From Oceanispirochaeta sp. (GTDB taxonomy: Bacteria; Spirochaetota; Spirochaetia; DSM-2461): DNA of 64,000 nt. The notes under the pieces were generated by a model that was not told the origin of the DNA, made no database searches, and worked only from the letters and a program-made list of their open reading frames with translations. The stretch covers positions 960,001-1,024,000 of the forward strand of contig CAXXXD010000002.1 of the NCBI GenBank assembly GCA_963663385.2, read 5' to 3'. This document shows positions 53,830 to 58,306 of this stretch, one piece after another. The translations under genes were made by a program, and so were the position numbers. The stretch's first letter is position 1, and every line of letters starts with the position of its first letter.

Positions 53830-55465
53830 GGGATTCCTGGTATTCAACAGGAGTTATCCCCATGGCCTTGTGGAAGTTTCTGAAAAAGTAACTCCTGCTG
53901 GTGAAGCCTACGGCAATCCCGACCTGTCCCGCATTCAGGGAACTGGTTTTAAACATATGACAGGCTCTGTCTATACGTGTCCTGTTCAGGTAGAAGGAAA
54001 AGGACTCTCCCGCTTCTTCCCTGAACAGCTTCCCCAGATAGGAAGCACTCATCTGGAACTGCTGGGACAGGGTTTTCAGTGAGAGCGGCGCCGAGTAATT
54101 CTGATCTACATAATTGATCAGTCTGCGGGCAATGCTGCTGTCAGAACGTTGTATCAGTTCTTCAGAAATCGCCAGAGACAATTTCCGCAGCCAGTCTATT
54201 AGATCTTCCGGAGATTTCTGTTTAAACAGCTGTCTATGAAGGTTCGCATATCCTCCGGTTAGACTCTCCTTATCCAGTTCCTCCTTTTTAACAAGCGAGA
54301 GAAGATCGGAAAGAATTTCAATCAAAAACCCGATACAGTACTCCCTGTCTGCTGCAGGGTGGTTGGTATAATCCATGAGCAGTCTGTTAAAAAAGTGACT
54401 GATAAGGGTTGTACTCCCTTCTATAATACCGCATATCAGATCATCTGTTTCAATTTCCCCGAAAGGCGTGTCTTCCCTTACAAAGCGGTCAAGGGATGCC
54501 TTGTCAATTATCCGTACGGGCAGGTAGGTAATCGGTTCAATCTCCAGGCCGTTGAACCAGTCTACAGCTGTTTTAACGGGCAGGGTTCCGTCCTGAACAG
54601 GATCCTGCCAGGTTATGGCATTCAGGCTGCCGTTTCGCAAAAGGGCAATCCCAACGGGTGTGCTCCCGTTGGCAACCCGGATCAGATCGGCTCTGCCATA
54701 CCGCGCCAGAGCATCGTTTATGCCCAACTGGCTTGTATTGTCATCCGCACTGATAATTCCCTTCAGTTTCGTTCCGTGTTTTACAAGCCAGGACAGCACC
54801 ATGTCGCATGTTTTCTGTCTGTTCAGCCCGGCCGAAGCCATTTCAAGCAGCTTCATACCCGGAGCACATTCCGCGAGTTCCGTTATGGCTCCCCATGCCC
54901 TGGCGTAATAGGGGGAGGTCCCCGGCAGGTGGGTAACAATGGCATAGCCGCCTTCATGGTTCATCAAACGGGCAAAGTGCCGGCTCAACTGCCTGGTCTG
55001 TTCCCAGTCATCCGGACCGGTCCAGGAGAGGATGTAGGGAAAACCGTCATCCTCCGGGAGCATATTGCTTGCAATGACAGCTATGCCGGCTTCATAGAGT
55101 CGTCTGTACAGGTAGGAACTGTCTTCATTGCTTTCCGGCATCAGTATAACAATGTCAGGCTTATCTTCGATAATGGCTTCAACCTGCTGATCCTGGAGTT
55201 CCGGATCCCACCCGGCATTGTAGATACTCAGCACCATTCCCTTTTTTAATGCCGCCTCACGGAGTCCCCGTATATATTCTCTCTGATAGGGGTGATCTCC
55301 CGCCAGCAGGGCAGCTATCCGTTTCCCCTCCGGTCCTGTTTCAGGGGGAGGCGGCTGCCTTTTTTTTCCGATATGCCAACCGGCATATTCCTTGTCATAC
55401 CAGTGTTCAGGCCTGGTTTTCGGGTATTCAGTCGGTTCTTCCGGACGGGGAGGGATGAATTTCAT
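53807..55465 (-). CDS. Sugar-binding-protein / AraC HTH fusion regulator (paralogue 1)
   Basis: Type I PBP domain (SWTGPDDW, GIISADD) plus C-terminal SYLGKLFREE.G.SF...VGF...YF AraC HTH; no signal peptide. Confidence 0.85.
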   Translation of the reverse strand: MKFIPPRPEEPTEYPKTRPEHWYDKEYAGWHIGKKRQPPPPETGPEGKRIAALLAGDHPYQREYIRGLREAALKKGMVLSIYNAGWDPELQDQQVEAIIEDKPDIVILMPESNEDSSYLYRRLYEAGIAVIASNMLPEDDGFPYILSWTGPDDWEQTRQLSRHFARLMNHEGGYAIVTHLPGTSPYYARAWGAITELAECAPGMKLLEMASAGLNRQKTCDMVLSWLVKHGTKLKGIISADDNTSQLGINDALARYGRADLIRVANGSTPVGIALLRNGSLNAITWQDPVQDGTLPVKTAVDWFNGLEIEPITYLPVRIIDKASLDRFVREDTPFGEIETDDLICGIIEGSTTLISHFFNRLLMDYTNHPAADREYCIGFLIEILSDLLSLVKKEELDKESLTGGYANLHRQLFKQKSPEDLIDWLRKLSLAISEELIQRSDSSIARRLINYVDQNYSAPLSLKTLSQQFQMSASYLGKLFREEAGESFSFYLNRTRIDRACHMFKTSSLNAGQVGIAVGFTSRSYFFRNFHKAMGITPVEYQESLRRQSDL

Positions 55466-55540
55466 GAAAGAAGTTTAGAGAGTGACCGCCCTTTTTGTCA
55501 AACAGCTTTTTTCAACTCCGGGAGCAGGGAGGAATAATAA

Positions 55541-55568
55541 TTGACAAATGGTAAAATTGTGATAAAAT
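55541..55568 (+). promoter_or_regulatory. Sigma70 promoter of the UroD-like gene, now upstream of the IS
   Basis: TTGACA-16 bp-TAAAAT with extended TG. Confidence 0.65.
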
Positions 55569-55676
55569 ATAGGTAAAATAAAAACAAAATTTTATCACAG
55601 TTTGTACGAAATGCTCACGGCCTGGTTATGCAAGCGGGCTTGAGAGTTTTTACAGGAGGAATGATAAAAAGTCTTC

Positions 55677-55860
55677 ATAGGCTTGTGGATTGATACAATG
55701 TTCTAAACATCGTTTAGAACAGCCAGGTTACTGTTCGCCATTTTTACTGGTCTCCGAGACCGTACAGGAGAATGAAGAGCCGTGACCGAAACATTCAATG
55801 GTCTTCGAGACCGGATAGGAGAATGGAATCAATTCACCGTACAGGCGCTGTTTTAGGCAA
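55677..55860 (+). ncRNA. Predicted IS110 bridge/seekRNA
   Basis: 5' hairpin 55699-55721; twin GGTCT-nCG-AGACC hairpins flanked by segments matching the target and donor; ends approximate. Confidence 0.75.
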
Positions 55861-55873
55861 TAGGAGCGAAGGT

Positions 55874-56986
55874 ATGAAGATGAGTATCGGAGTGGATCTG
55901 CACAAATCCCAGTTAACAGTCTGTTTCCTGAGTGATGATAGAAGCATTTGTGAATCAGGAATGTATCCGACCTCTGAGGACGGTTACAGAGCATTTCTTG
56001 AGAAAGCAGTGTCCTATACAGAAGAGGGCCTTGATGTTAGGGCTGCAGTGGAATCAACAGGAAATGCCCGGTTCTTCCGTAACAAGCTATTGCTAGCAGG
56101 GATTGAGGTGGTGGTTGTGAATACACTGAAATTCAAAGTTGTAAATGAATCAGTGAAAAAGACGGATAAGCATGATGCCAGAACTCTAGCAGAGTTCTTG
56201 GAAAAAGATATGCTTCCCGAATCACAGCTTTGTTCTCAGGAGAGTGAGGATATCCGTAGAGTTCTTAAATCCAGAACTATCCTTGTTAAATCAGTCGTAT
56301 CTTTGAAGAATCAGGTTCACGGACTGCTTCTAGGGTATGGAATTGAAACAAAAAGAGCTGCGCTGCAGAGTAAAAAAGAAAGGCAGCGCATCCTCATCGG
56401 TCTCGTGGACCATAGGAGTTTCGGAAGCGCTGCCAAAGCGATAGAACCGCTGCTTTCTACGATAGATCAGGTTTCGAACCAGGTCAAGCAGTTAGAGAAA
56501 GTCCTGCTGGAACTTGTAAAGGAAGATGAGGATGTACAGTTATTGCAGACGATCCCGGGAGTCGGATTGATAACGGCATCGACTATTAGGGCCTATACGG
56601 ATGATATCAAGCGGTACGCCAGTGCCAAGAAGTATTCGGCTTATGCCGGTCTTGTACCATGGGTGCAGAACTCCAATGAGACGATTCATCATGGGCATAT
56701 AACAAAGAGAGGGGCTGTAGAACTGAGAACGGCATTTGTTCAGTGTGTTATGGGAATGGTTAGAACTCGGAAAACGACTGGCAATTACCGTATCATGACG
56801 AAGTACAGAGCGATGAAGAAGAACAAGGGCAGCGGCACGAGTATTATCGCCTCTGCAAGAAAGATGAGTACGGTAGTGTACTCCATATTGAAAACCCGTG
56901 AACCCTTTGATCCGTTGAAGATGGTTCCGGATGATAAGTACTTGAAGATGCAGGCGGCTGCATTCAATGCCGTAAAAACTGGGTAA
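55874..56986 (+). CDS. IS110 DEDD transposase/recombinase
   Basis: IGVDLHK (D), AVEST (E), KTDKHDA (DD), LQTIPGVG, YAGLVPWVQNS (Ser); AGGAG SD at 55862. Confidence 0.95.
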   Translation: MKMSIGVDLHKSQLTVCFLSDDRSICESGMYPTSEDGYRAFLEKAVSYTEEGLDVRAAVESTGNARFFRNKLLLAGIEVVVVNTLKFKVVNESVKKTDKHDARTLAEFLEKDMLPESQLCSQESEDIRRVLKSRTILVKSVVSLKNQVHGLLLGYGIETKRAALQSKKERQRILIGLVDHRSFGSAAKAIEPLLSTIDQVSNQVKQLEKVLLELVKEDEDVQLLQTIPGVGLITASTIRAYTDDIKRYASAKKYSAYAGLVPWVQNSNETIHHGHITKRGAVELRTAFVQCVMGMVRTRKTTGNYRIMTKYRAMKKNKGSGTSIIASARKMSTVVYSILKTREPFDPLKMVPDDKYLKMQAAAFNAVKTG

Positions 56987-57046
56987 TCCGGTTCAATTGT
57001 AAGCTTGTTAATAGGCTTATGATTGACTTTTTATAGGAGTAAAAAA

Positions 57047-58306
57047 ATGACTTCAAGAGAAAGAGTTCTGGCCTCTGTCAACCACAGGTCTCCCGATCGG
57101 GTTCCCATTGACCTCGGCGCTACTCCCAGTTCCGGGATATCGGCGGTGGCCCATAACAATCTGATTAAACATCTGGGCTGGGCGGATTCTCCCACCCGGA
57201 TCTACGATGTGGTGCAGCAGCTTGCCCAGCCTGATGAAAAGCTGATAGAGCTTCTGGGGGTGGATATTCTGGATATTGGCCGGACCTTCAATACGTCTCC
57301 CGAAGACTGGTATGAGATAGATCTTCAGAATGGGGGTAAAGCGCAGTACCCGGTCTGGTTTCGTCCTGTCAAAAATGAAAAAACCGGAGAGTGGGAGGCT
57401 TTTCACCGGACCAGCGGGCGAAAGATTGCGTCCATGCCCGACAGCGCCACCTTCTATGATCAGTCATACTTCCCCTGGGTGAACGGATACCCGGACAGCC
57501 GGCAGGGGATGGAAGATGCTCTGGATGAGGCAATGGACCATATCCTCTGGTCCCATCTTGTGCACAGTCCCTGGGACCATGCGGGAGATGCGGGTTTTTT
57601 TGATACCCTCAGAAGCAACACCCTTGCCCTGCGGAAATCCAGCGATAAAGCCCTGATGGTTGTAAACGGGTGCAACCTTTTTGAATGGGGCACCTTTCTC
57701 CGCCGTATGGATAACTTTCTGATGGACCTCTATGTGGAACAGGATAAAGTAGCCATGCTGATGGAGCTGCTCATGGAACGGCATATGAAGGGCCTTGCCA
57801 AAACCTGCGAAGCCGTGGGGGATACGGTTGATATTTTGCGTTTCGGTGATGATCTGGGTATGGATTCGGGGCCTTTTATGGGACTGGAAGTGTACCGGGA
57901 CCTTTTTCATGAACACCGTAAGACTCTCTGTTCCCATGTGCATCAGAACAGCAGCATGAAAACCTTTCTCCATACCTGCGGGTCCATGCATCAGTATATA
58001 CCCAGCCTGATAGAGGAGGGAATGGATATTATCAATCCCGTTCAGACCAACTGCCGGGATATGGAGGCGGATAAACTGAAAGAGGAATTCGGGAAGGATA
58101 TCGTTTTCTGGGGCGGCGGAATGGATCCCCGGGTAATTCTGAATACGGGAACCCCGGAACAGGTCCGGGAAGAGGTCCGGAAGCGTCTGGACGTATTTAC
58201 TCCCGGGGGCGGATATGTTTTCAACAATATTCATAATATTATGCCCGATGTGCCGCCGGAAAATATCCTGGCCATGTTTGAGGAAGTTCAGAAATATCAG
58301 CTGTAG
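57047..58306 (+). CDS. Uroporphyrinogen decarboxylase / MtaA-CmuA-like methyltransferase family protein
   Basis: MTSRERV...PDRVP, GDDLG, LHTCG, INPVQ, FWGGG, GGYVF..HNI..DVPPENI. Confidence 0.85.
   Translation: MTSRERVLASVNHRSPDRVPIDLGATPSSGISAVAHNNLIKHLGWADSPTRIYDVVQQLAQPDEKLIELLGVDILDIGRTFNTSPEDWYEIDLQNGGKAQYPVWFRPVKNEKTGEWEAFHRTSGRKIASMPDSATFYDQSYFPWVNGYPDSRQGMEDALDEAMDHILWSHLVHSPWDHAGDAGFFDTLRSNTLALRKSSDKALMVVNGCNLFEWGTFLRRMDNFLMDLYVEQDKVAMLMELLMERHMKGLAKTCEAVGDTVDILRFGDDLGMDSGPFMGLEVYRDLFHEHRKTLCSHVHQNSSMKTFLHTCGSMHQYIPSLIEEGMDIINPVQTNCRDMEADKLKEEFGKDIVFWGGGMDPRVILNTGTPEQVREEVRKRLDVFTPGGGYVFNNIHNIMPDVPPENILAMFEEVQKYQL

Follow-up and report, generated by a model that had tools for sequence, protein, structure and literature searches.

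A candidate bridge RNA gene in a spirochaete IS110-family insertion sequence located between ribosome-binding sites and start codons

Within a window of 64,000 nucleotides (nt) of Oceanispirochaeta sp. DNA, which is the whole stretch analysed (GenBank assembly GCA_963663385.2, contig CAXXXD010000002.1, positions 960,001 to 1,024,000), an IS110-family insertion sequence of 1381 bp occupies positions 55659..57039; all coordinates below are window positions, and all features lie on the + strand. The region upstream of its transposase gene is very probably, as comparison with its relatives indicates, the gene of a bridge (seek) RNA that guides the element to host genes, into the interval that separates ribosome-binding site from start codon. 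The candidate RNA is roughly 160-180 nt long, from about 55677 to 55837-55858, and has two loops. Bases of the first vary among relatives in step with the host DNA at the insertion sites, and bases of the second vary in step with the left end of the element.

Copies, insertion sites and relatives

The genome (5.3 Mb in 4 contigs) carries 10 copies of the element with 100% identity across all 1381 bp, and a protein search of this genome found no transposase relatives beyond these 10. Similarity among the copies stops at 55659 and 57039, apart from the common AGGAG and A-rich spacers, which agrees with the boundaries originally predicted; since AGGAG closes both the left flank and the element's right end, the boundary can slide within those five bases. 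Insertion is site-specific and leaves neither inverted repeats at the tips nor a target duplication, only the common AGGAG being repeated. From the 10 identical copies we regard it, with high confidence, as an active element that has moved recently. The copies do not sit at unrelated sites: all 10 lie between NNAGGAG and ATG, with ACAGGAG as the left flank in 8/10, GCAGGAG in one and AAAGGAG in one, and with right flanks that consist of an A/T-rich spacer and an ATG 6-8 nt past AGGAG in 10/10. In the window copy the left half of the target is the host Shine-Dalgarno sequence ACAGGAG (55652..55658), whose last AG would be the core, and the right half (57040..57049) comprises the spacer and the start codon (57047-57049) of a URO-D-family gene (open reading frame, ORF, 57047-58306, matching PF01208).

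Scans of genome contigs and of metagenomes gave 76 and 80 more related loci, respectively, designated here by L and a number. Among the relatives are a 79%-identical element with 15 copies in one Spirochaetia assembly, a 56%-identical element with 12 copies in a Marispirochaeta assembly, a 33%-identical element with about 12 copies in a Lentisphaeria chromosome, and many single loci in records labelled Desulfobacterales, Treponema, Leptospira, Dehalococcoidales and candidate phyla. From the 166 loci, 18 of the Lentisphaeria type (L067-L079, L081-L085), with RNA too different for the parser, were left out; 139 of the remaining 148 were parsed and 9 failed (L041, L043, L062, L066, L092, L106, L119, L126, L138). 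Five mis-parsed loci were dropped (L111, L124, L156 and L157, in which the second loop was taken as the first, and L141, in which the left end was misplaced), which left a covariation set of 134 loci; these represent 129 unique sites and, for loop 1, 77 distinct guide sets. ATG lies 4-11 nt downstream of AGGAG at 101 of 107 unique family sites (6/107 are without it), and the AGGAG-to-ATG spacing lies between 4 and 11, most often at 6 (54/101).

Guide strands and fold of the candidate RNA

All motifs of the original prediction were recovered, by reading the sequence, where it had placed them. In the first loop, TACAGGAG at 55763-55770 is identical to the left flank at 55651-55658, and within it the target-loop 3' strand ACAGGAG (55764..55770), whose sense is that of left flank and core, would pair with the target's bottom strand. 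A comparison of this strand with the left flank in 69 equally weighted guide sets, with 5000 shuffles, gave a match of 0.84 vs 0.34 shuffled at position -7 and of 0.94 vs 0.73 at position -6, values that 0/5000 shuffles reached at either position. Position -8 matched at 0.23 vs 0.25 (3345/5000 shuffles reach the observed value), and positions -5 to -1 are a nearly invariant AGGAG. All four nucleotides take part in the covariation. At -7, guide A meets A in the flank in 50/55 cases, C meets C in 7/8, G meets G in 5/11 and U meets T in 25/36, and the corresponding counts at -6 are 74/75, 10/11, 3/3 and 16/21. Because its 3' strand tracks the flank at these two positions, loop 1 appears to be the target loop, as had been proposed. 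The target itself had been given as TACAGG-AG-TAAAAA, of which the left half appears guided at -7 and -6, and the T at -8 is unguided.

The right half of that target needs a different reading. The 5' segment TTTTTACT at 55741-55748 equals the reverse complement of 57038-57045, but this 8-base match is confined to the window copy: the 8 bases past AGGAG match TAAAAATG at 6, 5, 6, 4, 4, 3, 3, 3, 3 and 2 positions across the 10 copies. With coordinates fixed on the crossover, 107 unique sites and 44 guides show no covariation diagonal for the loop-1 5' strand. With sites anchored on ATG (101 sites, 42 guides), the three guide bases past a conserved CAU covary with positions -3, -2 and -1 of ATG (Z 3.2, 3.6 and 3.0; match 0.59, 0.53 and 0.47 vs 0.43, 0.33 and 0.30 shuffled), and the diagonal sum is reached in 0/500 shuffles. 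We propose that in the target-loop 5' strand CAUUUUUACU (55739..55748), host NNN-ATG on the top strand is read by CAU together with the three bases after it, and the final U closes the hairpin in a U-G pair. The guide-target covariation that the original prediction would lead one to look for among homologues is present in the loop-1 3' strand and, when anchored on ATG, in the 5' strand. Three fixed registers had been tried for the 5' strand on 23 elements, namely a core-contiguous one (52 vs 45.4; 166/3000 shuffles), a donor-like one (31.6 vs 33.9) and one starting at +1 (56.5 vs 45.8; 12/3000); they were dropped for the ATG-anchored reading because the 107 sites show no diagonal.

A rather unlikely alternative is that only the loop-1 3' strand guides, that the 5' strand (55739-55747) is structural, with for instance CAU pairing with AUG at 55772-55774, and that the position before ATG reflects the survival of harmless insertions. 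The 5' strand shows no covariation at its core-proximal bases in any fixed register, the AGGAG-to-ATG spacing varies, and RNAalifold pairs CA with UG (columns 103-104/138-139) in 26/27 sequences, all of which count for a structural strand; most ACAGGAG sites, moreover, lie where insertion would break a gene (237/1454 free ACAGGAG sites in the genome have ATG 4-11 nt downstream). Selection against gene-breaking insertions surely adds to the Shine-Dalgarno-to-ATG bias, yet the covariation is unexplained by such selection, and a purely structural strand leaves its three guide positions covarying with -3 to -1 of ATG (Z 3.0-3.6, 0/500). The genome itself provides a further comparison, in that its guide, UUU then CAU, predicts AAA-ATG. 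A occupies 23/30 of the corresponding positions at the 10 occupied sites, the 626 free NNAGGAG sites that open long ORFs have a mean of 1.03 A per site, and 1/50000 random ten-site draws reaches 23. The occupied sites among likely true starts are the A-rich ones that the guide predicts, which counts against this alternative, and none of the 40 listed of the 54 free ACAGGAG true-start sites has AAA before ATG.

The second loop corresponds to the two ends of the element. Its 3' strand, AUAGGAG (55815..55821), is identical to 57033-57039 and agrees in sense with right end and core, and its 5' strand, CAUUC (55792..55796), is complementary to the first five bases of the element, GAATG. Over 24 distinct combinations, the loop-2 5' strand and the left end form 109/120 Watson-Crick pairs vs 86.7 shuffled (0/5000). 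Eight left ends (GAATG, GTATG, GCACG, GCATG, GAGTG, GTACG, GAACG and GGATG) have a perfectly complementary strand, and five further combinations contain only G-U wobbles or a single mismatch. With a 5' strand that covaries with the left end and a 3' strand equal to the right end, loop 2 fits the role of donor loop in which it had been cast. The accompanying caveat, that CATTC could instead pair internally with GAATG at 55821-55825, is not borne out as the main constraint: the 55821-55825 partner keeps pace only partly among relatives, whereas pairing with the left end is perfect in the combinations listed, so the left DNA end appears to be the main constraint on the donor 5' strand. A handshake-type pairing was looked for by eye only, with no formal test, in the 4-5 bases past each AGGAG; these vary (AAUG, AUUG, ACUG; AAUGG, AGUGG, AUUGG, ACUGG) and did not track the left end.

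The strands are held in a conserved fold. The left end of the window copy folds better than all but 2/200 shuffles (z -2.5), and RNAalifold on 27 distinct left ends, the fold of homologues that the original prediction called for, finds 26 consensus pairs, 11 of them with compensatory double changes that span the outer stem, the loop-1 base stem and both top hairpins. An outer stem (55685..55694 with 55828..55837; minimum-free-energy fold and RNAalifold), in which AU replaces GC in 6 and 11 sequences (columns 39-43/199-203), closes the RNA and encloses stem-loop 1, the target module and the donor hairpin. Stem-loop 1 (55699..55721) is a perfect 10-bp hairpin, seen in the sequence and in an inverted-repeat search. 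The target module is made of a base stem, an internal loop and the top hairpin GGTCTCCGAGACC (55749..55761; compensatory GC to AU in 5 and UA to CG in 7 sequences), which is closed by a U55748-G55762 pair invariant in 27/27 sequences. The donor-loop top hairpin GGTCTTCGAGACC (55800..55812; GC to AU in 13 and CG to UA in 9 sequences) has its flanking strands in the multiloop between the loop-1 module and the outer stem. G-U pairs throughout the fold fit an RNA of the + strand only, which is the transposase strand.

It is very improbable that the left end is only a promoter and control region of the 5' untranslated region, with a protein recognising AGGAG-like sites and the flank matches stemming from common Shine-Dalgarno words. 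AGGAG is indeed invariant and also forms part of the Shine-Dalgarno sequence of the transposase gene at 55860-55866, and a conserved alternative pairing (described below) masks that sequence, so part of the region looks regulatory. A control region of this kind would not make the variable bases track flanks and left end with all four nucleotides, and chance matches are rare: in 200000 mononucleotide shuffles of 55664-55873 the left-flank 8-mer occurred in 892, the right-end 7-mer in 4360 and both together in 9, and the reverse complement of the right-junction 8-mer occurred in 601 (CATTC, in 27839, is not significant alone). The family has also been shown experimentally to use such RNAs (PMC11208160, PMC11187229). 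That the structured RNA acts on host mRNA or ribosomes, for example as a start-site regulator, and not on DNA is scarcely credible, since the 5' strand is antisense to start-codon regions and nothing else speaks for it, while the 3' strands carry the Shine-Dalgarno sense, not antisense, and the match between loop 2 and both ends of the element itself would be meaningless for a regulator of host messages.

Several observations weigh against a bridge RNA that reads both parts of the target, or temper the evidence for it. In the 15-copy 79% relative, A stands at -7 in 11/15 sites though the guide has U (with guide UU, T is found at -6 in 13/15 sites), and guide G at -7 meets G in 5/11 sites only; because of the former, we take the 3'-strand guide to be 7 nt with a tolerated mismatch at its far end. 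The ATG-anchored match fractions are modest (0.47-0.59 vs 0.30-0.43 shuffled), the three 5'-strand bases nearest the hairpin covary with nothing, and the spacing of 4 to 11 between AGGAG and ATG precludes a core-contiguous pairing as in IS621. On the donor side, the 3' strand and the right end are both invariant in the family, so that they match without covariation, and the GTCTG elements (L080, L159) form 3/5 Watson-Crick pairs with the donor 5' strand. Selection against intragenic insertions could contribute to the Shine-Dalgarno-to-ATG bias, and relatives share ancestry, so that shuffle tests overstate independence. No Rfam family was matched in a scan of 55300-57400 with E up to 10, whose 6 matches were all far under gathering scores and none IS-related.

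Two side observations concern the same RNA region. Both arms of stem-loop 1 can also pair with a segment past the bridge RNA that includes the transposase Shine-Dalgarno sequence (55699-55723 with 55847..55867), the 3' arm with GCUGUUUUAGGC and the 5' arm with GGAGC of the Shine-Dalgarno sequence. The alternative duplex has z below -2 against shuffles in 22/26 relatives (window copy, z -3.3) and changes in step among them; it may be a switch controlling transposase translation. In addition, a contig of another organism (run X9, record 18) holds a relative whose loop-1 3' strand is altered at 55763 and 55765 and whose 5' strand is altered at 55742, which looks like another naturally re-aimed guide.

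Recombinase, element ends and proposed mechanism

The transposase, or recombinase, of 370 amino acids is encoded at 55874..56986. It matches PF01548 (8.7e-21), PF02371 (4.6e-19) and the NCBIfam model NF033542, 'IS110 family RNA-guided transposase' (228 bits, cut-off 140), and in the Protein Data Bank it aligns with IS621 (chain 8wt6_A, E 9e-16) and likewise with ISCro4 (~1e-15). Aligned to these two, it retains D (IGVD), E (VESTG), D..D (KTDKHDA) and a serine (the ESG position vs NSN), that is, the DEDD RuvC-like N-terminal domain and the PF02371 C-terminal domain with a conserved serine by which the IS110 family is defined. Together with the fold and the guide covariation, these matches support the assignment to RNA-guided IS110 recombinases. 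The ribosome-binding site of the transposase gene (55860-55876 region) is ATAGGAG, identical to the right end, with ATG 7 nt downstream, and the element's own start region looks like its own target with one mismatch to the guide. Within the gene, GGTCTCGTGGACC followed by ATAGGAG at 56399-56418 resembles the donor-loop hairpin and 3' strand, and a comparable stretch occurs in the homologue L065.

The non-coding ends measure 215 nt on the left (55659-55873) and 53 nt on the right (56987-57039). They contain subterminal inverted repeats, ATAAAAAGTC (55664..55673) and GACTTTTTAT (57025..57034), complementary at 10/10 bases, and are strongly conserved in the family (left G-N-N-(T/C)-GATAAAAAG, right TTGACTTTTTATAGGAG). 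When the ends are joined in silico, the -35 element TTGACT (57023..57028) stands 17 nt before TAAAAA, which is preceded by TGA and belongs to the extended -10 element TGATAAAAA (55662..55670). In 75 distinct elements with both ends, TTGACT is found in 67, TAAAAA in 73 and TG before the -10 in 64. The sequence fits a promoter that would be rebuilt across the joined ends of a circle, and a junction promoter of this sort is described for IS621, ISEc11 and ISEc21 (PMC11208160, PMC11187229). At the right end, 56993-57034 holds a hairpin followed by CTTTTTAT, which resembles a terminator and shares bases with both the -35 element and the inverted repeat; relatives have a hairpin of differing sequence at the same place. 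A block on read-through into the host gene is one possible role, a site for protein binding another.

The core, which had been put at AG, is plausibly so placed, although its position cannot be fixed within the common AGGAG; it is probably the last AG, or CT on the other strand. The left junctions of L046, L152, L061 and L040 retain target-specific bases at -5, -4 and -3, and the crossover should therefore lie to the right of -3. One right end, GGGG (L027), and one left junction ending in T (L086) would fit a mismatched core or plain mutations.

We propose the following mechanism, in which transcription, RNA-DNA pairing, core, circle and catalysis are deduced from the DNA. When the element is circular, the right-end TTGACT and the left-end TGATAAAAA would form a promoter for an RNA from about 55677-55858, whose loop 1 reads the target and loop 2 the donor. 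The target-loop 3' strand ACAGGAG would pair with the bottom strand at the host Shine-Dalgarno sequence and core, and CAUUUU of the 5' strand with top-strand AAAATG, that is, the start codon and the three bases preceding it, a DNA spacer of variable length remaining between the two paired parts. In the donor loop, AUAGGAG would have the sense of the right end and core, and CAUUC would pair with the left end GAATG. The DEDD/serine recombinase would then exchange strands at the core inside AGGAG, most simply its final AG, so that the circular element enters directly after the host Shine-Dalgarno sequence. The right end ATAGGAG (57033..57039), the left half of the donor plus core, would thereby substitute for the host Shine-Dalgarno sequence, and the host ATG would be preceded by ATAGGAG at the original distance.

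In the window, the upstream neighbour of the element is a divergent AraC-type regulator. A strong promoter-like site at 55541-55568 (TTGACA, 16 nt, TAAAAT with TG; 11/12 matches) lies ~90 nt upstream of the insertion; once integrated, the element is probably part of its host gene's transcribed leader. The downstream gene is present in 9/40 other genomes; the five upstream regions inspected carry no element and, at 65-71% identity, are too diverged for the exact pre-insertion sequence to be recovered. No contig spanning the empty site was found in four contig-only sequencing runs, and these runs hold the same element after ACAGGAG in contigs of another organism.

Some relatives deserve separate mention. 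In the 15-copy Spirochaetia assembly, five insertions (L015, L016, L021, L022, L029) follow one repeated intergenic unit, a GC-rich hairpin and then A/T-rich sequence ending in a Shine-Dalgarno motif, and the last 14 bases of the left flanks of L016 and L022 are the element's own right end. At L039:2620-2680 the right end stands twice in tandem, 29 bp apart and each time ending in TTTTTATAGGAG, which could have been left behind when the site underwent an earlier insertion or excision. The left end of L064 has its loop-1 3' strand and part of the hairpin duplicated (GAGACCGTGAAGGAG twice) and its right end was not found; this copy may be decaying. A 75%-identical transposase is encoded on the 33-kb plasmid of Thiospirochaeta perfilievii (NZ_CP035808.1, 31089-32186), a cultured strain and thus a possible laboratory source of a family member.

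Comparison with known systems and wider meaning

The element belongs to a known kind of system, already named by NCBI's model. IS110-family RNAs are described as having two loops that each read both DNA strands around the core (PMC11208160, PMC11208158, PMC11187229). The present element resembles IS621 and the IS110 group in its DEDD RuvC-like domain and Tnp domain with serine, in the location of the RNA gene in a long left end upstream of the recombinase, in a first loop for the target and a second for the donor whose strands would pair with top and bottom strands around the core, and, as far as its motifs show, in a putative promoter across the joined ends; its shorter guide of 7 nt lies within the 4-7 nt stated in PMC11208160 and PMC11208158. 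In contrast to IS621 and ISEc21, the strand order within each loop is reversed: the 3' strands repeat the sense of left flank and right end, and it is the 5' strands that complement right flank and left end, an order that is not the IS110-group one. Unlike IS621, moreover, the element has a 5' target strand that is set apart from the core, and donor strands within a multiloop; its subterminal inverted repeat has 10 bp vs the 2-3 bp stated for the IS110 group (PMC11208160, PMC11208158), and similarity to the IS621 protein is only distant (E 9e-16, Tnp domain only).

ISEc21 is reported to have the same guide order as IS621, and IS1111-family elements the opposite order with the RNA downstream of the transposase (PMC11187229). 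The present element shares with the IS1111 elements ISEc11, ISPa11 and ISKpn4 a top-strand-complementary segment 5' of the bottom-strand-complementary one (PMC11187229), with IS1111 in general a repeat length within the stated 7-17 bp (PMC11208160), and with many IS1111 members donor-binding bases in a multiloop (PMC11208160); it differs in that its non-coding region is upstream of the transposase and its right end has only 53 nt. PMC11187229 names some exceptions among IS1111 relatives, ISMtsp17 for instance, whose non-coding region stands upstream, and leaves their RNAs undescribed. The element thus appears to combine the guide order, repeat length and multiloop of IS1111 with the RNA position of the IS110 group, a likeness by features and not by protein tree. 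A tblastn search of a plasmid collection (E 1e-8) for a subgroup name returned generic 'IS110 family transposase' labels only, and none of the ten commonest genera belonged to the Enterobacteriaceae. Viewed from the opposite strand, target and donor agree with the IS621 scheme, CT being the core, and one would therefore most simply describe the RNA and transposase genes as turned round with respect to the recombination site; that an inversion between the inverted repeats produced the flip is speculation. The guide order relative to gene order, the apparent two-part, variably spaced target and the apparent replacement of the Shine-Dalgarno sequence distinguish the element from the systems known so far.

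A precedent in the family for insertion between Shine-Dalgarno sequence and start codon is IS900 of Mycobacterium avium subsp. paratuberculosis, for which translation initiation signals are the reported target (Doran et al. 1997, in PMC8141618). It carries a host-dependent ORF, hed, on the strand complementary to the transposase (PMC8141618), which implies a transposase facing against the host gene, unlike the present one, which has the same direction as its host gene. Among the papers searched, none described a bridge RNA element directed to ribosome-binding sites. The Lentisphaeria elements with 33% identity (L069-L085) likewise follow an (A/G)-rich GGAG and precede ATG, with TTTTATCATAGGAG as the right end, and 13/13 of the left junctions observed close with GAGATG, followed by GTATGATAAA; insertion at start sites therefore appears to predate the Spirochaete family.

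More broadly, we entertain tentatively, at a little under an even chance, that these elements represent a widespread IS110 lineage, found in records labelled as Spirochaetia, Desulfobacterales and candidate phyla and at 33% protein identity in Lentisphaeria. Such a lineage would have a two-part target, with the Shine-Dalgarno sequence on one strand, NNN-ATG on the other and a variable DNA spacer between them, and a reversed arrangement, in which the polarity of the site is flipped relative to the RNA and transposase genes and which could have originated by inversion between the 10-bp repeats. Its cost to the host would be low, the host gene being given a replacement Shine-Dalgarno sequence, and it would possibly contain an RNA switch, the conserved alternative pairing being able to mask the transposase Shine-Dalgarno sequence.

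Bridge and seek RNAs are under development as programmable recombinases, and about 77 target-guide sets and 8 donor-guide sets on one conserved scaffold provide a ready map of reprogrammable positions. The family suggests that the distance from the crossover at which one guide strand acts can vary, and that guide order is separable from the position of the RNA gene, both of which bear on how the synaptic complex is constructed. For the biology of the family, the finding would mean that a mobile element parks in the transcribed 5' leader of host genes and restores the ribosome-binding site that it displaces.

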